DNA of 23,822 bases from a virus (taxonomy: Duplodnaviria; Heunggongvirae; Uroviricota; Caudoviricetes). The position numbers and the translations under genes were made by a program. This document shows positions 1-22,319 of this stretch, piece by piece. Each line of letters starts with the position of its first letter. Position 1 is the stretch's first letter. The notes under the pieces were generated by a model. It was not told where the DNA came from. It saw only the letters and a list, made by a program, of their open reading frames with translations, and made no database searches. The stretch lies in the IMG/VR virus record IMGVR_UViG_2671180283_000029, positions 1 to 23,822 of that record; one strand, 5' to 3'.

Positions 1-291
1 ATGACTCACACAGTTACACGCCTTTTGCCAGAGGCATTTGAACGACTGGCAGCAATCAAAGCCAAATACCCTGATATGAAGCATACGGCGCTTGTTGGAG
101 AGCTTTTAAAAGAGTCGGTAACCCTTACCCCTTTTGATAACGTTAAGGGCGTTGCAGAAGGTTCTAAGGCCATCAGAATCACAACGAACCAACTGGAACT
201 ACTCAAAGCACAGTCCGCAGTAGCAGGTTGCTCAATGATTCAAGTGTTAAGTACCAAGGTTCATCAACTGGCGGATAAATTGGGGGTTTAA
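1..291 (+). CDS. hypothetical protein; possibly ribbon-helix-helix-like DNA-binding protein; may be 5'-truncated by the window edge
   Basis: 96-aa ORF starting at window position 1; two segments (TRLLPEAFERLAAIKAK and KAIRITTNQLELLKAQSAVAGCSMIQVL) loosely resemble RHH repeats; no upstream sequence available to confirm the start. Confidence 0.35.
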   Translation: MTHTVTRLLPEAFERLAAIKAKYPDMKHTALVGELLKESVTLTPFDNVKGVAEGSKAIRITTNQLELLKAQSAVAGCSMIQVLSTKVHQLADKLGV

Positions 292-521
292 TGCTACCTA
301 GGTACAAATTTTATAAACTGGCATCACATCTAATCAGACAAGATACCCGCTCAAAAGAATATGAAGATGTTACGCTTGACCGTAACAAGAAAAGACTAAA
401 ACCACATCAAATTGAGCAGTTACGCCATGAATTAAAGTCACTGGATATCGAGCTTGATTATAGTGACCCGACTCAATTTAAACGGGCTTATGAACTCATT
501 AAGAATTGGGGGGAAGAATGA
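291..521 (+). CDS. hypothetical protein (76 aa)
   Basis: ORF in compact same-strand array; its stop overlaps the next ATG (ATGA at 518-521). Confidence 0.4.
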   Translation: MLPRYKFYKLASHLIRQDTRSKEYEDVTLDRNKKRLKPHQIEQLRHELKSLDIELDYSDPTQFKRAYELIKNWGEE

Positions 522-727
522 AGAAAGTATTCACCCTCAAACTTAAAACAGATAAAGCCTTCAAATATTTTCGAAATCTAATTGATGTACATAATGGATG
601 GGGTGACATTGATAATGATGACATCTATCTGATTATGCAATCCCCATCTTTCACGTTAAAAACCTCAGTAACAAAAAGCTGGTTTAGCCAATTTCATAGT
701 GAGATGGGTTTAATAGTCTCAGACTAA
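518..727 (+). CDS. hypothetical protein (69 aa)
   Basis: ATG at 518 preceded by GGGGGAAG SD; the track start at 506 is TTG; translationally coupled to the upstream ORF. Confidence 0.45.
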   Translation: MKKVFTLKLKTDKAFKYFRNLIDVHNGWGDIDNDDIYLIMQSPSFTLKTSVTKSWFSQFHSEMGLIVSD

Positions 728-894
728 AGGCAAAAAACGGTTTTACCCACTCTCAGACGCTCTCAATCGCATTCTAACGCAAAAAACCATCTTATTTTAG
801 GGTATGTTACACCCCTACAGGCTACCCCTGAAAAAGACTGTTTAGCTCGTTACAGAGCGATTGAGGAGGTCTGGTAAAAAGGAGATTTTAGGAA

Positions 895-1191
895 ATGAAC
901 AATTACCCAATGCAAGTTATGGTTGACCAAGAAACTATGAATTGGCTTAATGACCTGAACAGGTCGGGATTTAATATCTATTTCATGCATTGTTTTGAAG
1001 CATCAACGTATATTGACAAGCATATAATCAACGAAATTAAACTTGGTGACTTTGTTCACAAACTGGAAGTAACAGACCCAGACTACAAGAGATTTATCAC
1101 AAGCGAATGCAACCGACTTGATTTAAGCCCGGAGCAATTATTGAAGCTGAATGTATTCTTGACATTAAACCCTTACAGTGAGGTGATGTAA
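895..1191 (+). CDS. hypothetical protein (98 aa)
   Basis: ORF with AAGGAG SD 8 nt upstream of the ATG. Confidence 0.5.
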   Translation: MNNYPMQVMVDQETMNWLNDLNRSGFNIYFMHCFEASTYIDKHIINEIKLGDFVHKLEVTDPDYKRFITSECNRLDLSPEQLLKLNVFLTLNPYSEVM

Positions 1192-1268
1192 TGACGCTCG
1201 TTATTTTATGGACAGCTTTAGGTTTATTATGTGGTTGCCTGATTGCTAACGCAGCTAACAGAAATTGA
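1191..1268 (+). CDS. possible small hydrophobic peptide (25 aa, MTLVILWTALGLLCGCLIANAANRN)
   Basis: ATG at 1191 overlaps the last base of the upstream TAA stop; strongly hydrophobic; below the ORF-track size cutoff; could be spurious. Confidence 0.25.
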   Translation: MTLVILWTALGLLCGCLIANAANRN

Positions 1269-1292
1269 TGTTATCAGATTGTTAAAAAGCTG

Positions 1293-1321
1293 TTGACAAA
1301 TAACCTTAAGCATGACATAAT
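1293..1321 (+). promoter_or_regulatory. near-consensus sigma70-type promoter
   Basis: TTGACA at 1293-1298, 17-nt spacer, CATAAT at 1316-1321, reading rightward into a ~380-nt non-coding leader. Confidence 0.5.
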
Positions 1322-1490
1322 TTTAATTATAGGGAAGAGCAATTCTTCCTAAAATCATATTTTCAATAATCCGATGGATGGATATTCTGAGTTGGAAAGG
1401 TGCAATGCTTTTCGTCATGGCCTTTCAGTTTAGTCTGAGAGGCTATCTCAAAAAGTCTTTGTTCATTCGTTATTGAATCCTTACAGCTTT

Positions 1491-1520
1491 GCCCTAATCA
1501 TGAGTTAGGGCGTTTTCTTT
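1491..1520 (+). terminator. intrinsic terminator-like hairpin in leader
   Basis: GCCCTAA / TTAGGGC 7-bp stem, 7-nt loop, followed by GTTTTCTTT. Confidence 0.4.
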
Positions 1521-1581
1521 AAGAGTTTTAAGCAGAGCTTTTAAAGAAAGTTTTTCCTGAAACTTCGTTAACGTAACCTCC

Positions 1582-1617
1582 AAAGCCCTTCACAGATTAT
1601 GTTTAGGGCTTTTCTTA
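1582..1617 (+). terminator. second hairpin with T-rich tail in leader (terminator or attenuator)
   Basis: AAAGCCCT / AGGGCTTT 8-bp stem with 15-nt loop followed by TCTT; weaker than the first hairpin. Confidence 0.3.
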
Positions 1618-1711
1618 ATAGAGCATCTTTAATCAATCGTTAAGTCATCTTCTAAGTGTATTGGCGTTGAAGGTGCTCTATTAAGAAATAACCACTTAGA
1701 GGAAAATTATA

Positions 1712-2422
1712 ATGACAAACGATTTATATATTAACGGCAGAAAGATTGATAGCTTCGGGGACTGGTCACCACAGACTGAACATCCAGCTATCGCTATTCA
1801 GCGTAAAGAACACGATGAAAGAATTAAGCTTGAGCAAGAAATCCGAATGTCACCAAAGGAAATTACCTTTGTGGCTCCTGAGCCTCAAGAAATGCCTGAT
1901 ATCTGCAAAAGTGAAGCACTATTTAATCTTGAGCGTGAATATTACCCACAGTTAAAAGAACAGCGCCTTAGACTAGATGACGCTTACAGCAAAGTTACCC
2001 TGATGCAATCAGCTATTGAGCCGTCAGAATTTGAGATTCAGGATGAATTGTCACAGAAACCATTTGTCTATTACCAATACGAAGACAATGATGGTTTTGG
2101 TATTTATCCAGAAAACATCCCAGCCGCGATTAGTAGTCTTCCTGAGGGACATCGAATTGTGAAGATGGTTAAGGCATCAAGAGGTGCTGGTCAGTTTATT
2201 TACATGACCAATAAGAGCGATGAAGAACTCTGTGAACTTGCCAGGCAGAACATCTTGGCATCACGTAACAAGCAACTTGAAAATGTTAAGTTGTGTCTCT
2301 TAAGAGAGCTTCAGGCTATGAAAGACCTTATTTCTGCATATGAAACGCAGAAGAAGATTGCTATGCAGGCTGATATTGAGCAGTTAGTGAAGATTTCAAC
2401 GAAGTACGCAAAGGTGCTTTAA
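1712..2422 (+). CDS. hypothetical protein (236 aa), acidic with a coiled-coil-like C-terminus
   Basis: ORF with GAGGAAA SD upstream of the ATG; no recognisable motif. Confidence 0.55.
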   Translation: MTNDLYINGRKIDSFGDWSPQTEHPAIAIQRKEHDERIKLEQEIRMSPKEITFVAPEPQEMPDICKSEALFNLEREYYPQLKEQRLRLDDAYSKVTLMQSAIEPSEFEIQDELSQKPFVYYQYEDNDGFGIYPENIPAAISSLPEGHRIVKMVKASRGAGQFIYMTNKSDEELCELARQNILASRNKQLENVKLCLLRELQAMKDLISAYETQKKIAMQADIEQLVKISTKYAKVL

Positions 2423-2445
2423 CTATGAATTAAAAGAGGTGATTA

Positions 2446-2655
2446 ATGTTTGAAGAACGTTTAGAGACTATTCGGTCTGTTTGTGAAAACTTAAAGTTAC
2501 AAGCCAATCCAGCCTTAAGAATTAAAAACAAACGTCAAGTTATCACCTCACACAAACCAAAAACACGCAAGATTCCAAAGTGGTGTATCGACCGTATCCC
2601 TTCTGATGCCCAAATCATAGGTGAAACGGAATTACATTATCTTGTCAGACATTAA
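2446..2655 (+). CDS. hypothetical basic protein (69 aa)
   Basis: ORF with AGAGGTG SD 4 nt upstream of the ATG. Confidence 0.4.
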   Translation: MFEERLETIRSVCENLKLQANPALRIKNKRQVITSHKPKTRKIPKWCIDRIPSDAQIIGETELHYLVRH

Positions 2656-2733
2656 AAAAGAATTGGTTGGGTAAAAATCTACGGGAGAGATTATCGAGTG
2701 ACATCGGTAGTTTCTCCCTTTTTTGTATATGTG

Positions 2734-2797
2734 CTACGTGAAATCTGTAAAGCTAATACCCACACTGAATAATAGAATTTACGTAGCTCACGCTTAA
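2734..2797. repeat. conserved 64-bp intergenic element, copy A (CTACGTGAA-N11-TAATACCCACAC-N15-ACGTAGCTCACGCTTAA)
   Basis: Three conserved blocks with identical 11- and 15-nt spacings, matched by copy B at 4979-5042; lies directly upstream of the 2816 gene. Confidence 0.6.
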
Positions 2798-2815
2798 AGA
2801 GGTGAAATATGAACA

Positions 2816-4966
2816 ATGGCACAGTTTAAAGTTGATGATTTTCTGATTGAGTTAAGTTTTAACTCTCAGAAAGTTTTAAAAGGCTTGGAAAAAGCCGAGA
2901 AACAAACGATGCAAATCGCATCAAGAATTGAGAAACGACTAAATAAGGCATTCAGAGTTAACCCTACGCCTTTAAATGATTCTCTCAAACTAATGGAAAA
3001 GAATGTCGATAAAACTGTTTCCAAGATTGAGCAGCGTCTTAAAAACACTAGAGCGTTTAAGATTAAAACGGAAATTGATGACACTTTAAAGCCACTTAGA
3101 CAACCAAGACAGCCACGAATTAGCGGCAACAGAGCAATCACAGCGGCTTACTCAGCTAATATGTCTAAGCTAAAAGGCTTTGACCCTATTTTGCAGAAAT
3201 ACATCAAATCTCAGTTTTACGGGCTATCTGCTAAAGCTGGGTCAATGGATTCTTCAAAATTCAATGAGAAGCTGACTCAGTTAAATGCTTCAGTCAGAGA
3301 AGCAATTGCTAAAGCTAAAGGTCATACATCCACCAGCATTAACAATACAAGCGACGCATTTAATAATCTTGCAAGCAATGCAATCAAGTTATCTGGTGCA
3401 TTTTACTCTGTGATGGGTGCTCTTAACGCTTACAAGGCCATCATGAATGCAGGTCTTAAACGAGATTCCGCACAGAGAGCCGCTAAGTTTGTACTTGGTG
3501 ATAAAGCATCTGAGGCTGAAACATTTATCAGGGGACTGGCTGACAAGACAGGTCTTAATATCTCTGAAGGGCTATCAAGCTACGCTAAGTTTGCAGCAGG
3601 TGCTCAGGGTTCTATGTCACAGGAACAGACACAGGAGCTATTTGGTAATGCAACGGCTATGAGTCGCTTAATGGGGCTTTCTAACGATGAGCTAAACGGC
3701 ATTTTGAAAGCATTTGAGCAGATGGCTTCTAAGGGCAAGATTCAGGCTGAAGAGCTTCGTGGGCAGTTAGGTGACCGTATGGCAGGGGCATTTAAGCTAT
3801 TCGCTGAAGCATTGGGTATGACTGCTACAGAGCTTGATAAAGCGATGAAAGACGGGAAGATTTTAAGTAGTGATACTCTCCCTAAAGTCGCTAAACAGAT
3901 GGGCTTGATGATTGATAAAGCGGGTGGCTGGGCTGAAGTCGCTAAGAGCACTCAGACAGCTTTAGGGAAACTGGCTAACAACTGGGATGATACGATGGTG
4001 AAAATCTTCTCAGGTTCACAGGATGAGTTAAACGGCTTCTTATCCAGCATGAGTAGCTTGCTTAGTGAAATGGGTATGAGTTCTTCTATCGCTGGTGATG
4101 CTATCGGTGGACTTATCGACATGCTTAAAGCTGGTGTAGATGACATCCGTATCTTTAACAATCACCTTGAAGGCTGGATTCTACAGATTAAGAAGACCTA
4201 TTACAGCCTTGATGACACTAAACGAAAACTACTTGATGAAGTCGGTGATGGTTTTATCAATTTTGTCAAAGGTCTTGCTATAGCGTTATCTGCAAAGACG
4301 CTATTCAGTGCTACTACAGGGGTTATGAACCTGACAAGAGCAATCACAACGTTAGGTACAAGAGCTAATCAGGTGGCTGGTCAGGTAGCTACTGGTAAAG
4401 GTGTAGCTGGTGGTGTAGGTAGTGCTCTTGCAATTGGTTATGCTGATGACGGTTATGAAACAGCGTTAGCATTAGCTTCAATGATTCCACAAATCAGAGG
4501 CGTCACTCTTGGTTTATATGCATTGAAGAAAGCACTGGATTTTATGAATCAGGAAGTAGTCAAAAACGCTAATATGCATCCATCTGGGGTAGGTGTGGGT
4601 AGTGACTTTAATCCTGTGTATTCTGGTGACCCTAATAAACCGAATATGATTAACGAAGGATGGGGTAGAATTTTTAGTTCAATGGGTGAATTGTTTAACA
4701 ATGCCACAATGAATATTGCAAGATTCAATCATCCAGAATTAATTACCATGAAACAAGATGCATCATTAACGAGCACTGACATCCAAAATCTAAGAGATGA
4801 AATTAGTGCTTTAAGTAAGCGTATTCAGGAGCCTGTGAAAGTTTCACTTGGTGGTGAAGTTGCCATTAAACCAGATGAAACCAGCTTTATGACCTTTAGC
4901 AGTAATATCTACGACCAATATGCAGAAGCTACGTTATTAAGTTCATCATTCCCAGAAGATGATTGA
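2816..4966 (+). CDS. phage tail tape-measure-like protein (716 aa)
   Basis: Motif GKIQAEELRGQLGDRMAGAFKLFAEALGMTATELDKAMKDGKILSSDTLPKVAKQMG resembles the conserved tape-measure domain; helical N-terminus and Gly/Ala-rich hydrophobic segments (about residues 480-560), typical of TMPs. Confidence 0.7.
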   Translation: MAQFKVDDFLIELSFNSQKVLKGLEKAEKQTMQIASRIEKRLNKAFRVNPTPLNDSLKLMEKNVDKTVSKIEQRLKNTRAFKIKTEIDDTLKPLRQPRQPRISGNRAITAAYSANMSKLKGFDPILQKYIKSQFYGLSAKAGSMDSSKFNEKLTQLNASVREAIAKAKGHTSTSINNTSDAFNNLASNAIKLSGAFYSVMGALNAYKAIMNAGLKRDSAQRAAKFVLGDKASEAETFIRGLADKTGLNISEGLSSYAKFAAGAQGSMSQEQTQELFGNATAMSRLMGLSNDELNGILKAFEQMASKGKIQAEELRGQLGDRMAGAFKLFAEALGMTATELDKAMKDGKILSSDTLPKVAKQMGLMIDKAGGWAEVAKSTQTALGKLANNWDDTMVKIFSGSQDELNGFLSSMSSLLSEMGMSSSIAGDAIGGLIDMLKAGVDDIRIFNNHLEGWILQIKKTYYSLDDTKRKLLDEVGDGFINFVKGLAIALSAKTLFSATTGVMNLTRAITTLGTRANQVAGQVATGKGVAGGVGSALAIGYADDGYETALALASMIPQIRGVTLGLYALKKALDFMNQEVVKNANMHPSGVGVGSDFNPVYSGDPNKPNMINEGWGRIFSSMGELFNNATMNIARFNHPELITMKQDASLTSTDIQNLRDEISALSKRIQEPVKVSLGGEVAIKPDETSFMTFSSNIYDQYAEATLLSSSFPEDD

Positions 4967-4978
4967 TTTAACGGTGTT

Positions 4979-5042
4979 CTACGTGAATAAAGCAAAGTTA
5001 ATACCCACACCAAAAATTATTTTTCACGTAGCTCACGCTTAA
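4979..5042. repeat. conserved 64-bp intergenic element, copy B
   Basis: Same three blocks and same spacings as copy A; lies between the TMP-like gene stop and the 5123 gene. Confidence 0.6.
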
Positions 5043-5122
5043 CAGAGAAAATACATACATATCAAAGGTTTGGTTAAAAATGATTAAAATACACTAAGCC
5101 TTTGAAATCAAAGGAGAATTTA

Positions 5123-5911
5123 ATGATTTACTCTAATCAGATTCGTTACAGTGGCAAAGATGGCATCTATTTCCACTTAAGAGATAATGTAGATGCCTTC
5201 TTAACCTTATCAGCAACTGAGAACATGGAATTTGATAGCCCTATGCAGGTGACTACACAGAATATGCAATCGGGGCAAACCGTCACAGATAATGTGCAAA
5301 GAGCACCCAGAACAATCACTATTAGTGGTGTCGTTGTAGTTGGCTATGAAGGGAGCTTATTATTAACTCGTCAGGGTCAATTAGTAGAAAACTTCATCGA
5401 CACTCTGGAAAACTGGCGTGACCAGAAGCAAATTATTTCGGTCATCTGTAAAGATGGAATTAAAATTGATGATTCCATTATTACGAGTTTTAAAGCCTCT
5501 AAAGATGTTGGAATTTCAAATGGTCTAAGAATCCAGCTAACTTTTCAGGAAATTAACTTTAAAGCGATTGTAGGACAAACTGATATTTCAGCAGCAACTG
5601 GAAAGACCGCTACTACAAATGACGGTGGTGTGACCAGTAAGAAGAATGCAGGTAACGTGACCACTGAACGCAATAACGCGCCTATGCTATCGTGCAAAGA
5701 ATTAATGAATATTAGCGATGTATCCGGTTACGCTCCAGCTATCAGAAATGATATTCTCGATGCTCAGATTAAATGTAATAAGGCTTGGAAGCTGGACTAT
5801 TCAGACTTAACAGAAGCTGAAAAAACCAACGTCACCAATGCTAACAGTAACGCTGGTCGGGTAGCTTCAAAGCTTAAAAAGTACTCAGTGAATCCTAACA
5901 AAAAATACTAA
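5123..5911 (+). CDS. hypothetical protein (262 aa); position after the TMP-like gene suggests a tail-associated role, unproven
   Basis: ATG at 5123 with AAGGAG SD (track start at 5102 lacks an SD); Thr/Asn/Gly-rich C-terminal half; 3' end overlaps the convergent recombinase gene by 4 nt. Confidence 0.5.
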
Positions 5912-7431
5912 ATCTCTACTACATCAACATCTATTAAACCCCTCTCAGTGACTTCAGAAAGCGACTGTATAGCCTCTGTAACGTCCTCTGAGGGGTTTTC
6001 TGTTATTGATAGGGTGATTGACTTACTATTGTGAAAAGTCACTTTACAGCGACGTTTAGCAGTATTTAAAACGACCTCTTTAACAGCACTTTTGATTATC
6101 AGTTGTGCTTCAATCCTTCCCGCCTTTGTAGTCAAGTCACAATCGGACAAACAACCCACATCAATAGATTTAAGGCGTTGTGTCTCCTTCTCGATATCAG
6201 CATCAACCTGTGATAGCTCACCTTTTAACTGTTTTAGTTTGCTGGTAATAGCTGACAAATCTTCAATTTCAAGTGATAGCTGTACCAGCTTTTCAATATT
6301 GCTTGAGATGTGTTCACGGTGTAGCCTCAACATATCTATGGTATTCGTCGTATCGCTATCAAATCGGTCAAGACGAGATAGCAGAGTAAGCAATGTACCA
6401 TCGGTTTGCTTACGTGAAAGTCCTTTAGCACTACAACGGTTTTCATTACGAAGAGGACAACGATAAATCCCGCTTCTTGTATCGCTAAAGCCTGTGATAA
6501 TCAGAGCATGACCACATTCAGAACAACGGATAACACCTTTGAAAAGATTCACAGCCATTGGCTTATCTGAAGCAGGTTTTCTACCGTAACGAGCATATGA
6601 TAGTTGCTGGACTTTGTAGAATGTTGTTTCATCTATAATTGCAGGATAATAATCAGCTATCTCTTCACAGCCTTTAGGTGTGAAGTAACCAATTACAGAG
6701 CGATTTTTCAGAAGGTCTTGTACTGAGGTTTGACCAAATGAACCCGCTTTATATTGGTTAAGCGTCTGGTGACCTTCATCATTAAGAGTCCTGACAATCT
6801 CCCAGATAGACTTACCCTCTAACCGTAGCTGAAAGCACCTCTTCACAGTTTCTACCTTCTCAGGTATCACAGAGAAGCTTTTACGGTCATCATTAAGCTT
6901 AAGCCATGCAGGACAACGTTTAGAAATCTTGATACCTTCAGAGATGAGTTCTTTTTTACGGTTCCATGCAGCTTGTATACGCTCAGACTTCCTCAAACTC
7001 TCCTCATGCGACCGCTGCATTATCAGAATGCTTTTAATCAGAGCTAACGGGTCTTTAAGAGATTCTCGTGTGTAATGTTCACCATCGGACAAGGTGACTA
7101 CATCTACACCAGAGCGAAGAATGTTTCGTAATAGCTCACTTGCTCGGTCTACGTTCTGGCGTGACAAACGGTCAAGAGATTCTATCAAGAGCGTATCACC
7201 AGCTTTAACAAGCCCTTTCTCGATAGCGGTTAAGAAGTCACCTAAGCCACCTTTCAAGTGCTTACCAGTGAATCCACTCACACCTAAATCACGGAAGGAT
7301 AAATCTTGGTCAAGGTAGTACTCAGGATGAGCCTTAAGCCAATCAGTGACCATCTTAGATTGTCGGCGTAATGAATCACCTCGGGATTGCTTCTCAGATG
7401 AAAACCTGATGTAAGAAATGGCACGTTTCAT
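5908..7431 (-). CDS. large serine recombinase (serine integrase), 507 aa
   Basis: N-terminal resolvase-type catalytic domain (YIRFSSEKQ with candidate nucleophilic Ser, [11 protein letters not shown]), then recombinase domain, Cys-rich zinc-ribbon-like segment (CSECGH...[11 protein letters not shown]) and C-terminal coiled coil; GAGGTG SD; sits at the element edge next to the junction. Confidence 0.9.
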
Positions 7432-7483
7432 TGTTCACCTCAAAACTGATGCCTAGATTGTATCGCTTTAGGTGGTGTATTTA

Positions 7484-7921
7484 AACGTGTCTAATAAAAA
7501 TCACCCGATTAACGCCGCGCTGATGTAAACCGCGATTAAGCGTTTGTTCCTCTTCCCCTTTGGCGAAAAACTGTGGATGGCGGACTTCCACACCATAATT
7601 AAATTCGCCAGGGAGAGAATCGAGAAAATGCCAAAGCGCAGGCAGCTCCCGTGGGCCGAATGTGGCAGGCAGTTGCAGCCAGTATTGCCCAATGCGCGGA
7701 GCCAACGGTGACATGCGGGTCAAAAATTCAGTCACTAAATCATCGCAATGTCGTAATGCTGCCTGATGCGAAATGGTCGCCGGAAACTTAAAACAGAAGC
7801 GGAAGTCATCTGTGGTCTGTTCACGCCAGCGCAGGACAACCTCGGGTTTCGGCAGGGCGTAAAGCGTGGTGTTGCCCTCCACGCAGTTAACATGACGGGT
7901 ATTAAGGATTAACTTACTGAT
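7484..7921 (-). pseudogene. yecE: internal fragment of a chromosomal DUF72-family gene (yecE-like), truncated at both ends
   Basis: Reading frame open from 7921 to 7484 with no credible start (track start is GTG); the protein matches my recollection of E. coli YecE across its central ~130 residues, with the C-terminal tail (IFIRHV) diverging near 7500 and the 5' end running into the integrase 3' end; GC visibly higher than the left element. Identity is from memory, not a search. Confidence 0.55.
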
Positions 7922-9222
7922 TTTAATAAGCCTCTGGTGTCACTTTGGTGACTATGGGGCATCATTGGGACATAATCTGTCAGCTTCTGATTCAGCATTG
8001 CGATCTGTTCTGCATTGCTGTCAGTCATCCATGCTCCGTATACATTGAATACCATCTGGGCACTTGCATGGCCCATCTGGCTGGCAATGAAGCTTGGGTT
8101 TGCTCCGGCAGATAATGACCAGCACGCATAAGTGTGTCGTGACTGGTATGCCTTTCGATGCCTGATCCCTGCACGCTTAATGGCTGTTTCCCATGAGTCA
8201 CCTACAGAATCGACTTTGTAGACAAAACCTACCTGTTCGCTTTTTCTAACCACTTGAGGGTTAAACACGAAAGTACATTCATGGTTCACTGAACGTCCAT
8301 ATTCACGTAGTTGCACCTTGATGTTGTACTGCTTACCCAGTCTTGTCATTTCAGCCTGATTTTTCAGGACACTGATAGCGGGCTGGATAAGGTGCACAAC
8401 CCTGTTTGTGCTTGCTTCAGTTTTCGGTAGAGTGAACTCACCAAGTTTCGTATAATTGCGCCTGATGGTAATTGTTCCTGCCTTCAGATCGATATCTTCC
8501 CAGGCCAGGGAGACCAGTTCACCGTGACGCATTCCTGTGTACACAGCCAATGACCACAGGTTTTTCGTCTGCTGATGTCGGCAAGCATCTATCAGGCGAA
8601 TAAATTCGTCACGAGTTAGCGGATCTGGCTCTGCCCTGGCTCTTTTAAGAGGCTTAATTCCCTGGAAGGGATTTGCTTCTAAGTAACCGTGATCTGCAGC
8701 AAACTGAAACATTCCAGCGATTGTCGTCATGTAATAATTTACAGTAACGACGCTCCGTCCTTTTGCTGCTGCTTTGTTTTTCGTTGAATTCTGATACCCG
8801 GTCAGCAAATCTTTCCTGATATACAGCAATTCCTCTTTGGTTACCGATGACACCAGTCTACTGCCTCCAATTTTCGGAACCATCGTTCTTGCAACGGATT
8901 CATAGCGATTGAATGCATTTGCAGAGATTTCCATTCGTTTCAGATCCAGCCACTTTTCTTCAAGTTTCTTCACCGTAATTTCTTTTTTACTTACCCCAAA
9001 AGCCTGAAGGTTGGGGGAGTCAGGGAACTGTGCAGCATAATCAAAGCTTCCTGTGCGGATGGCAAAACATACTGATGTCCGCAGTTCCCCGGCGATCTTC
9101 CTGTTCTTGGCAGTGTCAGGGACACCAAGATTTTCCCTGACACGTTTACCTTTAAAATTAAACCAGATGCGTAATGTGCCGCCGTGGTTTTCGACGCCTG
9201 TTGGATATTTGACTTTATCCAT
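7909..9222 (-). CDS. int: phage tyrosine integrase (437 aa)
   Basis: C-terminal catalytic region with Arg/His/Tyr pattern (GMRHGELVSL, SRHTYACW, MGHAS, VYGAW); GGAGG SD; adjacent to the chromosomal gene remnant and followed by an excisionase-like gene. Confidence 0.9.
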   Translation of the reverse strand: MDKVKYPTGVENHGGTLRIWFNFKGKRVRENLGVPDTAKNRKIAGELRTSVCFAIRTGSFDYAAQFPDSPNLQAFGVSKKEITVKKLEEKWLDLKRMEISANAFNRYESVARTMVPKIGGSRLVSSVTKEELLYIRKDLLTGYQNSTKNKAAAKGRSVVTVNYYMTTIAGMFQFAADHGYLEANPFQGIKPLKRARAEPDPLTRDEFIRLIDACRHQQTKNLWSLAVYTGMRHGELVSLAWEDIDLKAGTITIRRNYTKLGEFTLPKTEASTNRVVHLIQPAISVLKNQAEMTRLGKQYNIKVQLREYGRSVNHECTFVFNPQVVRKSEQVGFVYKVDSVGDSWETAIKRAGIRHRKAYQSRHTYACWSLSAGANPSFIASQMGHASAQMVFNVYGAWMTDSNAEQIAMLNQKLTDYVPMMPHSHQSDTRGLLKSVS

Positions 9223-9277
9223 CGATACCTCCAGACGCCCAAGAGCGATACGAGCTTACATATTTCATGATATTAAA

Positions 9278-9514
9278 TCACCTGGGTTGTTTGTTTTTCA
9301 TTGAGGCGACCCAGGCATCTATTGCTTTTCTGTTATACATACATTCACTGGAAGGCTTTGGATTACCGTCTGGTGATACGTGAATATACTCTCTTCCAAC
9401 CATCCAGCATTCTTTCCGGGCCCGAAGAATTGTGCCTGGTTTGAGCCCGGTAATTGCGATAAGAACGCTTTCACAAACCCATTCATTGGGAGTCAGTTGA
9501 ATCACATTGCCCAT
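9278..9514 (-). CDS. xis: excisionase-like protein (78 aa)
   Basis: Small protein immediately upstream of int on the same strand; WMVGREYIHV resembles the lambda Xis winged-helix region (DGREYLFH). Confidence 0.6.
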   Translation of the reverse strand: MGNVIQLTPNEWVCESVLIAITGLKPGTILRARKECWMVGREYIHVSPDGNPKPSSECMYNRKAIDAWVASMKNKQPR

Positions 9515-9522
9515 GCATTACC

Positions 9523-9669
9523 TCACACAACACTCAGCCCACGGCAGTGGTACCACACTTCAAACATTCGTTTCACAATTTCACGACAGTAGAAGACGTC
9601 AACATCTCGCGTCAGGTCATAGCGATTGCCGTAACGCTGGCGCACCCATAGCTCAAACGCTTTATTCAT
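9523..9669 (-). CDS. small hypothetical protein (48 aa, MNKAFELWVRQRYGNRYDLTRDVDVFYCREIVKRMFEVWYHCRGLSVV)
   Basis: ATG at 9669 with AAGGAAG SD; fills the gap between xis and the next gene; below the track size cutoff. Confidence 0.35.
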   Translation of the reverse strand: MNKAFELWVRQRYGNRYDLTRDVDVFYCREIVKRMFEVWYHCRGLSVV

Positions 9670-9672
9670 TCT

Positions 9673-9915
9673 TTACTTCCTTTTCATGGCCCGTAATTTT
9701 TTCAGATGAGCTTCCTGCTCTGTTTCTGCCAGAATTTGTCGGTATTCCTGGTGATCAATCCGTTCAAACAGTTCATTGAAATCGTTTATTTTTACTGACT
9801 GTGTTCGCCCATCCATTCTTCTGTACAACACAGTGTTGTTTATGCAGCGAACAATTTTTACCGGGTAACCGGCATTGTCGGTATACAGTTGTCCCTGATT
9901 AATCAAAGCGAACAT
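9673..9915 (-). CDS. hypothetical phage protein (80 aa)
   Basis: Internal ATG at 9915 preceded by AGGAG SD; the track's longer 121-aa version would overlap the upstream gene. Confidence 0.5.
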   Translation of the reverse strand: MFALINQGQLYTDNAGYPVKIVRCINNTVLYRRMDGRTQSVKINDFNELFERIDHQEYRQILAETEQEAHLKKLRAMKRK

Positions 9916-9946
9916 TTTTTCTCCTGCTCTCTGAATAGTGAGAACT

Positions 9947-10318
9947 TCAGAGCCGTATGTTTGTAGCGGGTTCAATACTGATAATTTCTGCTGAGATAAG
10001 CATCCCGGCAAGCCAGAGCTCTCCGGACAGATCTTCATCCTGGCATGTCAGTTCGCCAATATTAATGGTGGCCATGATATCTGTTTCCCCTGTACGCTCA
10101 TCCTCGACTTCTTCATAAGGCAGCGTTGCGTACAGGCTTTCAATAGCGCAACTGATAACATCGAGTCCGGTCAGGTTGCCACCGACAGTGACTTCGAATG
10201 TTTCGCGGTATTCCCATTGCCCGAAAGTTAATCGAACGGTTTGTTTCGCCATGCGTCCGCATGACGTCAGATTTGGGTCATAGTTCATTATTTGCGGTTG
10301 AGTATTATGAGTGTTCAT
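9947..10318 (-). CDS. hypothetical phage protein (123 aa), acidic
   Basis: ORF in the leftward early operon; no recognisable motif. Confidence 0.5.
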   Translation of the reverse strand: MNTHNTQPQIMNYDPNLTSCGRMAKQTVRLTFGQWEYRETFEVTVGGNLTGLDVISCAIESLYATLPYEEVEDERTGETDIMATINIGELTCQDEDLSGELWLAGMLISAEIISIEPATNIRL

Positions 10319-10359
10319 CTGCTTTTCCCTTAGCCCGACGGCCTGCCGGGCATATTAAG

Positions 10360-11187
10360 TTATTTAACCTGGATAAATGGTGTATTGGCACCGCTGGTCA
10401 TGTATTGCGGCAGCGTGCCATTCCATTTATTGATGGCTTCCAGCTCCATAACACCGGGGTTCTGACGCAGAGCTTCACCGCGTAAACGAATAGCATCGGC
10501 TTCAGCCTGGGCTTTTGTGCGAATCGCATCAGCCTGTCCGGCAGCTTCCGCGCGCAACATGTTGGCTTCCGCTTCGCGCTGTTTTACTTCCTGCTCGCGT
10601 TGCAGAGTTTTCTGGTTCGCCGTGACTTTGGCATTAATGCTGTCGATAACAGTAGGCGGGTACTCCGGCTTACCCACATATGAGAGGCTTATTACCTGAA
10701 TACCGATGGGCGTCATTTCTTCCTGAATGTCTTTAAGAGCTGCATCCAGCAGCTCAGACTTGCCGCCGTCGATAAATTTGTCGGTGGTCATTTTGCTGGC
10801 CAGTCGGTTGAGTGCGTCGGCTATCTTCTGGCGCAGGTCGGTGTCGGTAATGTCGTCCACGCCTTTGCGGTAGGTCTGAAAGACTGTGGTAACTTTGGAT
10901 GGATCAACCTTGTAGGCTACTCCGATGTGGTAACCAATGGTTGTTCCATCGCTCATCTGGAAACTGAATGGATCATCGTAGGTCTTCATCTGCTTAAAGG
11001 TCGGGAAGATATAAACTTCAGTGTTCCAGCCTGTCCAGTAGCGACCAACACCGACCACTTCACCGACGCCTTTGTCGTCGCCAAGTTTGTTGACTTTGAT
11101 GCCCACATTACCAGGCTCAACACGATCACAACCGACAAGGCCAATGGCAGGCAGAACAATGGCTAAAGAAAAAATAATTTTTTTCAT
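10360..11187 (-). CDS. SPFH/band-7 (prohibitin/stomatin-like) domain lipoprotein, 275 aa
   Basis: Signal peptide with lipobox LVGC (MKKIIFSLAIVLPAIGLVGC); band-7-like core; C-terminal Ala/Glu/Arg/Gln-rich coiled coil typical of SPFH oligomerisation tails; AAGGA SD; ATGA overlap with the upstream small gene. Confidence 0.75.
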   Translation of the reverse strand: MKKIIFSLAIVLPAIGLVGCDRVEPGNVGIKVNKLGDDKGVGEVVGVGRYWTGWNTEVYIFPTFKQMKTYDDPFSFQMSDGTTIGYHIGVAYKVDPSKVTTVFQTYRKGVDDITDTDLRQKIADALNRLASKMTTDKFIDGGKSELLDAALKDIQEEMTPIGIQVISLSYVGKPEYPPTVIDSINAKVTANQKTLQREQEVKQREAEANMLRAEAAGQADAIRTKAQAEADAIRLRGEALRQNPGVMELEAINKWNGTLPQYMTSGANTPFIQVK

Positions 11188-11372
11188 CTTTTATCCTTAG
11201 TGAAAGAAAGCCCCTTATAAATGGTATAAATGCATGGCGGGGTTAGAAACGTCAGTGCAAAGCCAGAAATCACCGCTACCGTATCCTTCATTGATATCAG
11301 AAACGGGACGAGCAATCCGTAAATACATGCGATAATTGCCAGTGATATAACTATTCTGAAATAAATATTCAT
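11184..11372 (-). CDS. small membrane protein (62 aa, two predicted TM helices) coupled to the SPFH lipoprotein
   Basis: Two hydrophobic stretches (IVISLAIIACIYGLLVPFLI and AVISGFALTFLTPPCIYTI); AGGAGG SD; its stop overlaps the lipoprotein ATG. Confidence 0.55.
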   Translation of the reverse strand: MNIYFRIVISLAIIACIYGLLVPFLISMKDTVAVISGFALTFLTPPCIYTIYKGLSFTKDKR

Positions 11373-11432
11373 GGTCCTCCTGCTGTATTCGGCTTGCCTT
11401 ATTTAATTGCGTCATGGTTAATTTCGTTTACG

Positions 11433-11825
11433 TCAGAATGGTTTTGTTGCCATCAGTTCGTAATATCCGGCGCTCCATGTGTCATATTTTCTGAACCATT
11501 TTTCTGTATACTGTTTCCTGGCGATGAGTCTGCGCAGTCGTCTGATTGTTCGCTGGTGTGCGCGGGTGTACTCTGTGGTTGATTCTCCACGTTTCCATAT
11601 CTCATTCCCGTTGAAGATAAAACGCTTGTCAGGATGGCGTTGTCGGAATCCTGAACGTTCAAAAGCGCGGGTGGTCATAAAGAATGCCAGGTAACGAATT
11701 GCCGTTTTTCGAGTGAGGCATTTTTTTGTTCTTCCGTGGCGTGTTACAAAAAATAACGGGCCGACGGGTGTATCATGTTTCTGTAATGCCTGGTCAATGG
11801 CGCTGGCGGTGCGGTTGTCGATCAT
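11433..11825 (-). CDS. hypothetical basic protein (130 aa)
   Basis: ORF in the coupled leftward operon; Arg/Lys-rich; start overlaps the upstream gene stop. Confidence 0.5.
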   Translation of the reverse strand: MIDNRTASAIDQALQKHDTPVGPLFFVTRHGRTKKCLTRKTAIRYLAFFMTTRAFERSGFRQRHPDKRFIFNGNEIWKRGESTTEYTRAHQRTIRRLRRLIARKQYTEKWFRKYDTWSAGYYELMATKPF

Positions 11826-12040
11826 TTCTTTATTTCTCCTGAATAACGTTCATGACTCATTACTTCCCAGTTCCGGCCGTCGTCTTTCGATAACAGCCGC
11901 CAGCGACGGTTAACCTTCAGACTGAGACATCCGTTGCGCTGTATCCGATGCGGGAATATACGTCGGCATCTGTACCGCCGCAGGACCAGCAACGCCTGCT
12001 GGTGGACCCACTCAGGAATTCGCGTTGCTGTTAATGTCAC
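11822..12040 (-). CDS. hypothetical protein (72 aa)
   Basis: GTG start at 12040 with AGGAGG SD 6 nt upstream; ATGA-type junction with the downstream gene. Confidence 0.4.
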   Translation of the reverse strand: MTLTATRIPEWVHQQALLVLRRYRCRRIFPHRIQRNGCLSLKVNRRWRLLSKDDGRNWEVMSHERYSGEIKK

Positions 12041-12227
12041 TGGTTTCCTCCTGAGCAGGTGCTGTTATCTGATACCCCGCTCTTTCTGCCAGCCATATGA
12101 ATGTATCCATGCTGGCAATCAGCTCTCCATCGCGGACTTTGCAGACATCTGTTACCTGGCCATTTTCAATTGTCATAACGATCTGCACTTTTTCGTGCAC
12201 AACAGATACAGGGGATAAATTAGCCAT
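12012..12227 (-). CDS. hypothetical protein (71 aa)
   Basis: ATG at 12227 with GGAGG SD; overlaps the stop of the upstream gene. Confidence 0.45.
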   Translation of the reverse strand: MANLSPVSVVHEKVQIVMTIENGQVTDVCKVRDGELIASMDTFIWLAERAGYQITAPAQEETSDINSNANS

Positions 12228-12586
12228 CAGTTAATTCCTCCGCTGATATATTTTTCTTTCGCGTAATCAATAACCTCTTGTAAAAGGTTGTCTATAATTA
12301 ACTTTCCGGTTTCAGCCTGGTATTCAGTATGTTGATTAATCCCGATGGCATTCTGGTATGCAGTTCGGAATTCTGTTTCACCCTCCACTCGACCCAATTC
12401 ACCACGGGTAATATCTTCAAAGCGCAACAGCAACTGGTTTATAAACTGTTCTGTTATTTCTATGGTCGTAATGTTCCCATTCAGAAGGTCAACAATAAGC
12501 AGTTCACCACCTGTTTTACGTTTTATTCGATGGAGTTCTGCAACAGCTATACGGCGACGATATGTATTAATGGATTCATGTGTCAT
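12227..12586 (-). CDS. hypothetical protein (119 aa)
   Basis: ORF in the coupled leftward operon. Confidence 0.5.
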   Translation of the reverse strand: MTHESINTYRRRIAVAELHRIKRKTGGELLIVDLLNGNITTIEITEQFINQLLLRFEDITRGELGRVEGETEFRTAYQNAIGINQHTEYQAETGKLIIDNLLQEVIDYAKEKYISGGIN

Positions 12587-12589
12587 TTG

Positions 12590-12703
12590 TTATTTCCCGT
12601 ATGCTTTACGCAGAAATAAGCAGGCAATATGCATGTAATTTTCACCGTATTGTGCAATAAGACAGGCGGTCTTGTGTGATGCCATATTCTTTATAAAAGT
12701 CAT
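12590..12703 (-). CDS. small hypothetical protein (37 aa, MTFIKNMASHKTACLIAQYGENYMHIACLFLRKAYGK)
   Basis: ATG at 12703 with perfect AGGAGG SD 7 nt upstream; ends 4 nt before the next gene's start; below the track cutoff. Confidence 0.3.
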   Translation of the reverse strand: MTFIKNMASHKTACLIAQYGENYMHIACLFLRKAYGK

Positions 12704-12781
12704 AATAAAGCCTCCTGTGGATTAAGATTGTAACAATCCCCGGCGATAAAACCGCAATAAACCTTCAGGGCATATTTGTTG

Positions 12782-13147
12782 TTATTGCGCTAATTCTTTT
12801 TCGGCAGCAGCTTTTGCATACTCACATGCAAAATTCAGAATTTCGCTGCCGAGTGTTTTCGTTTCGTGATTACTGGACATATGTAATACCTGTGTTGCAT
12901 GCAATAAATGATAAACATTTACCGCAAATGAATCAGGCTCCAGACAAATGCCTTCGTAATTATCTTGCTGTGAGGTTGTTTCTGTCATTGCTTCTGAAGT
13001 GCATGCGAGCCTGTTTTTGACAATTCTCTTTCCTCTAATCACTATATCGGCAACATCTATTGCCTTTACAACCTCCGGGAGAAGTTCCGGGTTTGTATAA
13101 TCAAAGTCATCAACATGGAGAACAGTTATGTTTTCGAACTTTTTCAT
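12782..13147 (-). CDS. hypothetical protein (121 aa); first gene of the leftward early operon (lambda N map position, not N-like)
   Basis: ORF preceded by a divergent intergenic region (13148-13326) containing inverted repeats; not arginine-rich like N. Confidence 0.5.
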   Translation of the reverse strand: MKKFENITVLHVDDFDYTNPELLPEVVKAIDVADIVIRGKRIVKNRLACTSEAMTETTSQQDNYEGICLEPDSFAVNVYHLLHATQVLHMSSNHETKTLGSEILNFACEYAKAAAEKELAQ

Positions 13148-13326
13148 GGCTTCCTCAGCTGACTTATATGTCCTGCTATATAGCGAGTCTCAGAAGTGTT
13201 TTCATATTGAGACTGTTTCCGCAATGATTGATAATCAGTTACCGGATGCTTATCCGTGTCCGGCGCACGACCACACGTAGCCGCGTGTTGGTCCCCATTT
13301 TCAATTCAGCTCTCAATGGAGGATAA

Positions 13327-13554
13327 ATGATTAACGCAGAGCAACTCGAAAAAGAGATTTCAGAACTCAAAAAAGAATTAATTTGGCACAAAGTTGCTAT
13401 CTCCGCATTAATTCGTCAGGTAGTTTCACCTGAAGATAAAGTAAAGTTTATGAAGCAGCTCTCATCTTCATCAAAGGAGTTTTTCACTGACGAGGTTCAT
13501 CCAGAGGCTGGATTTTGGATCCGTCAATTATTTTCGCAAGATAAGCGTAAATAG
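13327..13554 (+). CDS. hypothetical small coiled-coil protein (75 aa)
   Basis: ATG with GGAGG SD 5 nt upstream; converges on and overlaps the 3' end of the minus-strand 80-aa gene by 71 nt. Confidence 0.45.
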   Translation: MINAEQLEKEISELKKELIWHKVAISALIRQVVSPEDKVKFMKQLSSSSKEFFTDEVHPEAGFWIRQLFSQDKRK

Positions 13555-13726
13555 CGTCATCAATACTCGCGTCGCTCTTGAATTTAAGAGCGATGCTCTT
13601 TATATCCTCTGAAATTATTACCAGATCACCATATGTTATATTTTTATTATTGCGCGCAGTGCTTTTTTGTATGAAATCAAGCAATTCACCAATGAGACAA
13701 ATATGGTAAGCATTACAGTTTTTCAT
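13484..13726 (-). CDS. hypothetical protein (80 aa), gene B of the cI-adjacent module
   Basis: ATG at 13726 overlaps the TGA of the upstream HTH gene (ATGA junction); the track's longer version starts further upstream in the other gene. Confidence 0.5.
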   Translation of the reverse strand: MKNCNAYHICLIGELLDFIQKSTARNNKNITYGDLVIISEDIKSIALKFKSDASIDDAIYAYLAKIIDGSKIQPLDEPRQ

Positions 13727-14184
13727 GCGCAGATATCCTTTGCTGCCGTTTCGCCAGTTAACAGCCACATCGCATCGCAGCCAAGAATATTTGCCAGTGG
13801 GATAAGCATACTGATAGTTGGTTCATACTCTCCGCTCTCCCACTGGATGATAATTTCTTCATCGAGATCGAGCAGCCTGGCGAGTTCGGCGGTTGTTAAG
13901 CCGCAGGCTTCGCGTTGGGTGCGAAGGTTAACCAGCCAGCTTTCAGGGAAGGATTGTTTTTGTTGCGCAGGAGAAGCAGCAGATAGAGCATATTCATGGA
14001 TAAATTCCATTATCTCAATGCCCAGTTCCTTTGAGCGAGCACAATCCAGAAGATGGAATGTGCGTACAGCACTTAGCAAATTTGCAATATTTAATGCAAA
14101 GGAATCAAGTTCTAAGCCCTTAAGCGTAACACAGCCGCAGTTGATAAAATTAGTTGTTTCTGGAGTTGCTTTTAGTGTCTTCAT
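13723..14184 (-). CDS. XRE-family HTH protein with an unknown N-terminal domain (153 aa), gene A of the cI-adjacent module
   Basis: C-terminal LRTQREACGLTTAELARLLDLDEEIIIQWESGEYEPTISMLIPLANILGCDAMWLL is a classic XRE helix-turn-helix; ATG at 14184 with GGCGGA SD (track start at 14214 is TTG); N-terminal ~85 aa unrecognised. Confidence 0.6.
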   Translation of the reverse strand: MKTLKATPETTNFINCGCVTLKGLELDSFALNIANLLSAVRTFHLLDCARSKELGIEIMEFIHEYALSAASPAQQKQSFPESWLVNLRTQREACGLTTAELARLLDLDEEIIIQWESGEYEPTISMLIPLANILGCDAMWLLTGETAAKDICA

Positions 14185-14237
14185 ATATCCGCCAACAATT
14201 TTAAATTGAATCAAATCAAGTTATAATTGATGGTGCG

Positions 14238-14266
14238 ATATTATGTTTTGGGAAATAGCCTGTCAA
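14238..14266 (-). promoter_or_regulatory. near-consensus sigma70-type promoter for the gene A-B module
   Basis: On the minus strand TTGACA (rc of 14261-14266), 17-nt spacer, TAATAT (rc of 14238-14243); lies between the cI terminator and gene A. Confidence 0.45.
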
Positions 14267-14294
14267 GAAAAAATTGATATCGTATATTTCAGGC

Positions 14295-14318
14295 AGAAAA
14301 AAAACGGGCAAAGCCCGT
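14295..14318 (-). terminator. intrinsic terminator downstream of cI
   Basis: On the minus strand ACGGGC-TTT-GCCCGT stem-loop followed by T8. Confidence 0.55.
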
Positions 14319-14330
14319 TAAAATCAAAGA

Positions 14331-15026: not shown

Positions 15027-15153
15027 ATCCTGTGGGTTTCTTTACAAGGATAAATCTTTACTTGATTTTAGTGTATTCGATCCTTTTGCAACTTGCATGT
15101 TAATTTAAACTTGATGTATTCTTGATTTATAAAGTTAATATTGGTGCTTTGTT
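15027..15153. promoter_or_regulatory. cI/cro divergent promoter-operator region (pRM/pR equivalent)
   Basis: 127-bp AT-rich spacer between divergent cI and cro-like genes containing three copies of a CTTGAT-containing motif; exact operators not resolved. Confidence 0.45.
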
Positions 15154-16148: not shown

Positions 16149-16256
16149 AAAAAAGCCGGGAGTAACCCGGCTCACTCAACATCAATAACGGGGAGCTGTT
16201 TCGCATAAAACGGCTCCGAAACATCCAAGAACAGTTCTAAAGATATCAGCAGCTAT

Positions 16257-18700: not shown

Positions 18701-18710
18701 GGTGACAGCG

Positions 18711-21261: not shown

Positions 21262-21306
21262 TGGCTGAATTTTTTCTTCTGCGTTCATGCAATACCGTTC
21301 GCTGAG

Positions 21307-22302: not shown

Positions 22303-22319
22303 TTTTGTGGAGAAAGTTG

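Follow-up and report, generated by a model that had tools for sequence, protein, structure and literature searches.

To our knowledge, satellites of virulent phages are represented by very few systems, namely the Vibrio PLE, PICMI and a system in Streptococcus thermophilus, and satellite-encoded tail parts were, as far as we know, proven experimentally only in 2026, for PLE. PLE carries a large serine recombinase, parasitises the virulent myophage ICP1 and replaces the tail assembly chaperone (TAC) and the tape measure protein (TMP) of its helper; some variants also replace BhuB, the hub protein encoded next to the TMP, and chimeric tails result (PMC12987554). Deletion of tmp in PLE cuts transduction by 96–99.9%, and the PLE small RNA (sRNA) SviR binds the TAC and hub transcripts of the helper (PMC12987554; 2026). 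The same paper notes tmp genes in other putative satellites, namely PLE-like elements and cf-PICIs, and by the legend of its Extended Data Fig. 10 they are putative tmp genes in some of the cf-PICIs (PMC12987554). The PICMI of Vibrionaceae are summarised in their abstract as minimal satellites of virulent phages that have no capsid-remodelling genes and are packaged as concatemers (PMC10803314). Here we analyse a DNA of 23,822 nucleotides (nt), positions 1 to 23,822 of the IMG/VR virus record IMGVR_UViG_2671180283_000029 (in the following “the window”), in which a gene at 2816–4966 had been singled out from the sequence alone as tape-measure-like. Positions 1 to ~7.5 kb of the window are the right-hand part of an ~11 kb element, the island, that is inserted in the host gene yecE. 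We propose, with a probability of roughly 60%, that this island parasitises virulent myophages of the Felix O1 type (Ounavirinae) as a satellite and swaps its own TMP and its own tube initiator (TI) into the tail of the helper. This reading is favoured because a small integrative element, helper-derived tail genes, a putative mimic of the helper DNA end, a gene resembling a replication initiator (Rep) and an apparently circularised form come together. For the wider proposal, an undescribed but widespread satellite family in E. coli, Salmonella and Citrobacter that combines mimicry of the helper’s direct terminal repeat (DTR) boundary for packaging with a fast-diversifying TMP and TI replacing those of the helper, we see even odds. 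In the open-access full-text literature we found no description of the island or of any Ounavirinae satellite.

The TMP gene is an unbroken reading frame for 716 amino acids (aa). Its product matches the Pfam family TMP_3 (PF20155; E 2.8e-22, 79.8 bits at a curated cut-off of 41), NCBIfam TIGR02675 tape_meas_nterm (2.9e-15, 56.3 bits, cut-off 21.35), PHROG 4036 “tail length tape measure protein” (9.5e-90) and Bas63 gp017, the TMP in a solved virion (PDB 9ndy chain F; E 8.8e-70). The sequence-only reading, which had named a conserved tape-measure domain and Gly/Ala-rich hydrophobic segments, is borne out by these matches and by residues ~480–600, which are hydrophobic and contain 28% Gly plus Ala, with Kyte-Doolittle windows above 1.2 at 479–486 and 549. 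Its view that they are typical of siphophage TMPs has to be revised, as the closest relatives are the TMPs of Ounavirinae (Felix O1-like) myophages with 27–36% identity. The TMP family is widespread and matches many other phages too, with those of the Felix O1 group being nearest. Compared with the Felix O1 TMP of 742 aa, the island protein is 26 aa shorter and 32% identical; the N-terminal MAQFKVD..ELxF, a central domain (54% identity within that part) and the C-terminal LLSSS[FY]PE[DE] are kept. By its sequence, the protein appears to be a satellite-specific lineage related to Ounavirinae TMPs, and the surfaces that are expected to contact helper parts seem conserved while the remainder has diverged. 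A tape measure sets about 1.5 Å of tail per residue, and with 716 instead of 742 aa we estimate that the tail would be only ~4 nm shorter. Because the two lengths are so near, the island TMP is probably not used for re-measuring the tail. The earlier suggestion was a satellite bringing a tail-length determinant of its own to hijack a helper; we retain the satellite and doubt the change in length. A non-virion use of the TMP fold, which had also been raised, is possible. In the Bas63 structure the last 25 residues of the TMP touch spike and hub (PMC12609058).

The TMP gene is not orphaned, as its downstream neighbour is also a tail gene. The two genes stand in the order of ORF67 and ORF68 in Felix O1. 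The neighbour has its true start at 5123, and its 262-aa product matches Pfam Dit_like (PF21821; 2.6e-20, residues 37–153), PHROG 3721 (1.5e-130) and the “tube initiator protein” gp018 of Bas63 (PDB 9ndy; 2.6e-115). It is 74% identical overall to the ORF68 protein, which is encoded immediately 3' of the phage TMP gene ORF67. This identity is unevenly distributed, with 94% in the first 183 aa and 36% in the C-terminal ~75 aa, where a length similar to that in the phage, two conserved Cys and the terminal SVNPNK are shared. At the nucleotide level, 510 nt (5147–5656) are 95.1% identical to positions 44139–44648 of Felix O1, and the same patch is 90–95.5% identical to 212 phage records, nearly all Felixounavirus by name. 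Such values are the closeness expected among Felixounavirus phages themselves, and the 95% patch appears to show a recent exchange of DNA with Felix O1-like phages. All 301 of 301 phage records that match TI have Felix O1-group-type names, and every record that was checked belongs to Ounavirinae. In Bas63, TI forms a hexamer with tube-protein fold that adapts the trimeric hub to the six-fold tube, and its ~100-aa C-terminal extension spans the baseplate beside the spacer proteins (PMC12609058).

The split of TI into a 94% and a 36% identical part is also expected of a dominant-negative subunit. The island could then serve defence only and never be packaged: TMP and the chimeric TI would be decoys that block baseplate and tail completion of a Felix O1-like phage, with the TI N-terminus seated on the hub of the invader and the divergent C-terminal arm and foreign TMP obstructing assembly, and the bacterial population would be protected. 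The baseplate-spanning position of the C-terminal ~100 aa in Bas63 (PMC12609058) is in line with such a role, as is Rta of PLE11, a satellite defence that works by blocking tail assembly (PMC12987554), and hypervariable alleles of the island genes suggest an arms race. We nevertheless regard a purely defensive island as unlikely. Nine island proteins gave no match at E <= 0.01 in PADLOC-DB 2.0, and a known anti-phage defence system was rejected on this basis. A mimic of the DTR boundary, a replication initiator and an attP-joined form of unit length, which are described below, would be needless for pure defence, and a TMP that is full length, keeps both helper-contacting termini and is under purifying selection fits a working tail part. 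Defence and satellite lifestyles are, moreover, not mutually exclusive.

Among 5,426 complete E. coli genomes, 488 (~9%) carry DNA similar to positions 1–7500 of the window, always in the chromosome. In E. coli YD786 and PM22 this DNA belongs to an ~11 kb insertion inside yecE (DUF72), between yecN and yecD, and the same insertion is found at the same yecE site in Salmonella, where it is 10.7 kb long. A relative is carried by E. albertii, the sole find in a search for close relatives with one genome per species (GTDB set). Between the att sites the element measures 10.7–11.5 kb with TMP and TI as its only structural genes, and a complete or defective tailed prophage was rejected for this reason. 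No head or packaging genes are annotated or called in the complete islands (YD786, PM22, Salmonella and the metagenome contig L022). Families of capsid, portal, terminase, sheath, tube and chaperone proteins are missing from the Pfam, PHROG and NCBIfam matches in window 1–7431, and likewise from the Pfam and PHROG matches of the left-hand ORFs (open reading frames) in the first three of these islands. The sequence-only reading had recognised no capsid, portal, terminase or chaperone-frameshift gene around the TMP gene and had seen the downstream gene followed directly by a serine recombinase; the first statement extends to the complete islands, and the second is confirmed, with both genes convergent and their 3' ends overlapping by 4 nt. 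The head genes that might have been found further to the left are absent from every complete copy. Of the neighbours proposed for a search for tail folds, 5123–5911 is the TI gene and orf236 (1712–2422) has no structural match, so that the ordinary tail and head genes of a complete prophage, which would have explained the locus otherwise, come down to one tail gene and no complete prophage.

The recombinase gene lies at the end of the island next to attR, and the yecE sequence resumes after the attR core at 7503. In yecE, attB is CGGGTGATTTTAGACAGCC, with AAAATCA as the shared core. The predicted attP is an imperfect inverted repeat that is intact in L022 (ERZ1090866 NODE_760, 11,473 bp), the one contig that a search of metagenomes for the attP junction brought up. 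This contig comprises the entire island in circular permutation, with attP inside and without yecE flanks, and it ends at adjacent positions within the Rep-like gene. It shows a unit joined at attP, which could be a circle formed by excision, a concatemer or a tandem array. Related islands are found in wrbA, at one more E. coli site and in Citrobacter freundii. The serine recombinase differs from site to site, whereas the module of orf236, small ORF, TMP and TI is common to the islands at the other sites. The element is therefore mobile and modular, because the same module sits at several sites with different recombinases. The module accompanies other large serine recombinases of 547, 506 and 514 aa in L030 (ERZ28624251 scaffold_929), L029 (ERZ28594460 scaffold_6011) and L023–L025 (Citrobacter freundii), whose targets are wrbA, a site with the core AATGACCCTTGA and the Citrobacter site, respectively. 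Some variants at other sites have a small resolvase of 182–191 aa near the left end. The GC content of the island (~0.37–0.44, against ~0.5 or more in the adjacent prophage) resembles that of Felixounavirus, for which Pr103Blw with 38.7% GC is an example (PMC8303462).

Full-length relatives reveal what precedes position 1 of the window. Complete copies start at the left with a non-coding region of 1.1–1.6 kb and a Dam-type methyltransferase fused to a helix-turn-helix domain, and continue with small ORFs (one of them HNH-like), orf236, orf69, TMP, TI and the convergent recombinase. In PM22 the methyltransferase gene is followed by that of a winged-helix protein, which matches replication-initiator and DnaD-like phage families (PHROG 270, 8102 and 186; ~1e-10 to 1e-11). 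This initiator-like protein is also encoded in L022, the Citrobacter island and other variants, and YD786 has a different protein of 185 aa in its place. A 163-nt piece of the left non-coding region of PM22 matches phage DNA with a database E of 8e-9; the matching records, 246 of 246, have Felix O1-group names, and the matches lie in unannotated DNA. The counterpart in Felix O1 is a gene-free region of 1.6 kb (12305–13928). In the phage Pr103Blw the corresponding region contains a DTR of 581 bp that was defined by PhageTerm (PMC8303462). When sequences from three phages and three islands are aligned, three conserved blocks emerge on both sides of the right boundary of this repeat: block A, GATATTTTAA..AATTYTGCAAAGGGGGT, ~20–45 nt inside the repeat; block B, AGATATTTTT, ~25 nt outside; and block C, TTTTATAAAAATTTT...TCTGAA...CTRTACAG, ~90 nt outside. 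The spacing from A to C is 123 nt in the phages and 122–128 nt in the islands, and the DNA between the blocks is unrelated. The blocks may represent a mimic of the packaging or end-processing signal of the helper. Another segment, located just upstream of the island Dam gene, has its phage match in the promoter region of the ORF40 operon of Felix O1 and contains a ACCTTGTCAAGTGCNTTGTCAAC-like box which also precedes the DNA polymerase operon of Felix O1. As a separate observation, region 12305–13928 of Felix O1 is crowded with strand-biased CTTGTTAG and CTGTTAAG repeats, including 8 of the 9 plus-strand copies of CTTGTTAG in the genome, and the left non-coding region of the islands has looser repeats of the CTNTNNAG type.

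All matches between the island and phages apart from those of the TMP, namely TI and the non-coding segments, thus fall into the Felix O1 group, and the left region of YD786 has no match to any phage outside it. This stands against another helper, for example the lambdoid prophage 400 bp away or another temperate phage, for which the similarity to Felix O1 would be merely historical. Such a helper is brought to mind by the window itself, where the lambdoid prophage adjoins the island (from its integrase at 7909–9222 to Q at 22305–22691), and by IMG/VR prophage calls that take in the island. Island variants also use yecE and wrbA, which we take to be integration sites of Shiga toxin (Stx) phages. 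The islands of YD786, PM22 and Salmonella, however, have no adjacent prophage, and we give this explanation the least credence of all that we weighed.

Pairwise ratios of nonsynonymous to synonymous substitution rates (dN/dS) are 0.15–0.25 for the recombinase and are given for TMP, TI and orf236 in Table 1. Because they range from 0.04 to 0.42 across the genes tested, the island genes are maintained under purifying selection. Within the E. coli yecE islands, whose recombinases are 90–92% identical, there are at least three allele groups of TMP that are 42–53% identical to each other. TMP alleles are 679–725 aa long and all are 27–38% identical to the Felix O1 TMP, TI alleles are 60–99% identical, and orf236 alleles go down to 24%. 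TI is a mosaic, and the identity of its N-terminal part does not follow that of its C-terminal part (r = 0.13). The identities of the TI and TMP C-termini correlate moderately (r = 0.61 in 55 pairs), a value that is confounded by physical linkage, so the co-variation of both C-termini is only suggestive. In the Citrobacter island, TI is nearest to Suspvirus-type phages by record name (67%) and TMP to Mooglevirus (29%), both of the Felix O1 group. This allele pattern would fit a long conflict or co-adaptation with Felix O1-like phages.

Alternatively, the island may hold an inert remnant, a tail fragment of a Felix O1-like phage that was captured by an integrative element, or stayed behind in it, and is carried passively without present function. 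Only two of ~20 tail genes are present, and the 95% patch points to recent exchange with such phages. As we know of no temperate relatives of Felix O1-like phages, arrival of the fragment by illegitimate recombination during infection is conceivable. However, TMP and TI are intact in nearly all islands examined from E. coli, Salmonella and Citrobacter, with L013 and its truncated TI as the exception, dN/dS of the tail genes is 0.04–0.30, a conserved dedicated element lies upstream of each tail gene, and the TMP lineage is old, with its allele groups still of full length. A passive remnant is thus very unlikely. The degraded tail module suggested from the sequence alone finds no support either, given that the architecture is kept in ~9% of complete E. 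coli genomes and three more taxa, at several sites and with several recombinases, under the dN/dS values above. In the exceptional IMG/VR variant L013 the TI gene (4778–5215) is truncated to 145 aa next to an intact TMP gene; it is possibly a decayed copy.

We therefore return to the satellite reading and hypothesize the following course. Upon infection by a Felix O1-like phage the island would excise and replicate. It would then express orf236, orf69, TMP and TI, the last two each from an island-specific promoter-like element of its own. TI would seat on the hub of the helper, and its phage-identical N-terminal domain would nucleate the helper tube, while the island TMP would dock to the helper spike and hub via its conserved C-terminal tip, giving a chimeric tail. 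The helper terminase would package island DNA via the mimicked end signal, probably as concatemers. Packaging would spread the island and very likely lower the yield of the helper.

Several points weigh against this course of events. We infer induction, replication, packaging and transfer, and thus all function, from sequence. The window lacks the left 4 kb of the island, and only its relatives tell us of a Rep-like gene, a Dam gene and the DTR mimic. The homology at the DTR boundary is short (three blocks in ~160 nt) and could be a shared promoter or protein-binding site; moreover, only one of the DTR boundaries is mimicked. Contig L022 could stem from tandem integrated copies and not from a free circle, and the attP junction is absent from the viral contigs of IMG/VR. 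Neither a tail assembly chaperone nor a capsid-size factor or a small terminase is recognisable in the island, and a genome of 11.4 kb in an ~87 kb head needs concatemers or a capsid remodeller. Finally, since the island TMPs are only 27–38% identical to known phage TMPs, the true helper could be an unsampled relative.

Table 1 Features of the island and its right junction in the window
Feature	Position	Strand	Basis
Small island ORF, 96 aa	1–291	+	ORF list; same position in PM22, YD786, L012, L015 and L022
Three small ORFs	291–521, 506–727, 895–1191	+	Syntenic in other islands
Near-consensus sigma-70 promoter (TTGACA, 17 nt, TG-CATAAT)	1293–1321	+	11/12 matches, best site of the island
Candidate structured RNA, ~190 nt	1328–1520	+	Intrinsic terminator 1490–1512; minimum free energy -59.8 kcal/mol
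orf236, island-specific hypervariable protein	1712–2422	+	dN/dS 0.25–0.42
orf69, small protein	2446–2655	+	Kept in most island variants
Strong intrinsic-terminator-like hairpin between orf69 and the TMP gene	2683–2718	+	15-pair stem followed by TTTTTT
Promoter-like element, copy 1, directly upstream of the TMP gene	2734–2797	+	~65 nt, CTACGTGAA ... TAATACCCACAC ... ACGTAGCTCACGCTTAA
Tape measure protein, 716 aa	2816–4966	+	PF20155, TIGR02675, PHROG 4036, PDB 9ndy; dN/dS 0.10–0.30
Promoter-like element, copy 2, upstream of the TI gene	4979–5042	+	Aligned with copy 1
Tail tube initiator (Dit-like), 262 aa	5123–5911	+	Dit_like, 9ndy gp018; dN/dS 0.04–0.12
Large serine recombinase, island integrase, 507 aa	5908–7431	-	Resolvase, Recombinase and Zn_ribbon_recom; PHROG 95 “integrase” 8.6e-76
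attR, island arm GTGTATTTAAACGTGTCTAATA plus core AAAATCA (7497–7503)	7475–7503		Junctions compared in four genomes
Middle fragment of the interrupted host gene yecE (DUF72)	7504–7890	-	Pfam DUF72 1.3e-31

The TMP and TI genes are preceded by two copies of a promoter-like element (Table 1). A 17-mer of this element occurs twice in the window at an expectation of 0.03 and is absent from Felix O1. Divergent islands, a Citrobacter-like variant among them, have kept the element. Intergenic regions of the window share no more 11-mers with Felix O1 than expected by chance. Together, the terminators and the duplicated element suggest that expression of the tail genes may be gated. Further upstream, the promoter at 1293–1321 was compared in 14 island variants: the -35 hexamer is invariant and 12 variants have the same -10 hexamer, also when the identity of the flanking proteins has dropped to ~25%. 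It is followed by a candidate RNA with conserved blocks and hairpins, in which five pairs show compensatory changes. No Rfam family matches this RNA, which could act as a regulatory sRNA or else form a terminated leader in front of orf236 and control it. The best complement in Felix O1 is a perfect one of 14 nt (60067–60080) to the invariant loop GTGCAATGCTTTTC; with ~0.1 such matches expected by chance, as we estimate, it was rejected as a target.

Protein orf236 forms more than 3,000 clusters at 90% identity and has a second allele family of 24–28% identity, a diversity that is unusual for a gene at a fixed position. It has no match in Pfam, PHROG, NCBIfam, PADLOC, PDB sequences or phage tblastn. 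Its AlphaFold2 (AF2) model, with a confidence (pLDDT) of 77, combines long helices with a small alpha/beta domain; Foldseek gave nothing below E 0.01 for it, either in PDB or in BFVD. The RefSeq name “transposase” was rejected as a naming artefact, as no transposase family matches, and chaperone, major tail and distal tail protein were dismissed for lack of any family, PDB, tblastn or fold match. The small protein orf69 is 68–100% identical in most islands and 43–46% in L015 and L022. That it extends orf236 through a frameshift was rejected, because orf69 is preceded by a ribosome-binding site of its own, the relative frame varies among islands, and stops intervene. A programmed frameshift upstream of the TMP gene, for which a check had been proposed, is accordingly absent; judged by the families of orf236 and orf69, the fold of orf236 and the reading frames, no programmed frameshift and no recognisable tail chaperone precede the TMP gene. 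The product of 1–291 has no Pfam or PHROG match and, going by its sequence pattern alone, may be a tandem ribbon-helix-helix regulator, and the ORFs 291–521, 506–727 and 895–1191 have no family in Pfam, PHROG or NCBIfam.

The remainder of the window (7891–23822) is the left arm of a lambdoid prophage. It is separated from the island by the yecE fragment, and homology to the YD786 chromosome stops at ~7890. The prophage, too, is inserted in yecE, towards the 5' end and at a distance of ~400 bp from the island, so that two mobile elements share one target gene. From the yecE side the prophage encodes a tyrosine integrase (7909–9222), a DUF1233 excisionase, an SPFH protein and a CI-like S24 repressor (14331–15026), followed by a Cro/YdaS-like protein, a DnaC-like protein, DnaB, a DUF968 gene and antiterminator Q (22305–22691). 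Positions 16257–17575 hold tandem duplicate genes with Ash and Rha domains. For each of the two, matches above the Rfam gathering scores place an isrK Hfq-binding RNA and also a C4 antisense RNA over the gene (16314–16502 and 16970–17158). This appears to be a duplicated immunity module of the P1/P7-style c4/ant type.

If our proposal is true, the island is, as far as the literature was found, the first satellite assigned to Ounavirinae, and it provides a second, independent case of tail-part substitution. The chimeric-tail strategy of PLE would then be general and extend to enterobacteria. As the substituted parts have a solved helper structure in Bas63, their interfaces are open to direct study, and with the island the question why satellites exchange the tape measure could be approached in E. 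coli, as a tractable model. Resistance to Felix O1-like phages, which are used in Salmonella typing, biocontrol and therapy, would then also have a hidden cause in the island; with its presence in ~9% of complete E. coli genomes and in Salmonella, it could affect efficacy and host range of these phages.

Compared with the phages, the island has the same two genes in the same order as Felix O1 (ORF67, ORF68) and Bas63 (gp17, gp18), but they stand apart from the ~20 further genes for tail and baseplate and from every head gene. In Felix O1 the two genes abut, whereas in the island a 156-nt spacer with the promoter-like element lies between them, and the baseplate-spanning C-terminal arm of TI is replaced (36% identity). 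With cf-PICI, PICI and P4-like satellites the island shares its chromosomal location, a similar size and the same hosts. The known helpers of cf-PICIs are temperate phages, and hallmarks of the three families are a tyrosine integrase, AlpA, a primase-replicase and capsid or terminase genes. None of these hallmark genes is recognisable in the island by Pfam or PHROG, considering the window and the left-hand ORFs of complete islands. Unlike the island, cf-PICIs are described in summary as encoding everything for their own small capsids and packaging. For an element of 11.4 kb in a head of ~87 kb, concatemer packaging as in PICMI is the solution that would be required. In contrast to the reduced gene content that the abstract gives for PICMI (PMC10803314), the island has two tail genes.

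The closest parallel is PLE. PLE has a replication initiator of its own, a part that the initiator-like protein of the relatives may play here. Both are small chromosomal islands with a large serine recombinase, both have a virulent myophage as helper, which for our island is presumed, and both encode a TMP and beside it a baseplate-hub component, which in our case would likewise enter the helper tail. Tail-gene alleles fall into strongly divergent types in both, and the candidate non-coding RNA conserved in the island recalls SviR. In contrast to PLE, the hosts are Escherichia, Salmonella and Citrobacter and the helper lineage is Ounavirinae, the island is smaller with ~11 kb against ~18 kb, and it has no recognisable tail assembly chaperone or capsid-remodelling gene. 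Its hub-side gene is a TI with an N-terminal domain 94% identical to that of the helper, in comparison to 41% for BhuB of PLE, and it carries the putative mimic of the helper DTR boundary. What we claim is therefore a resemblance to PLE in the proposed mechanism, not membership in the same family.

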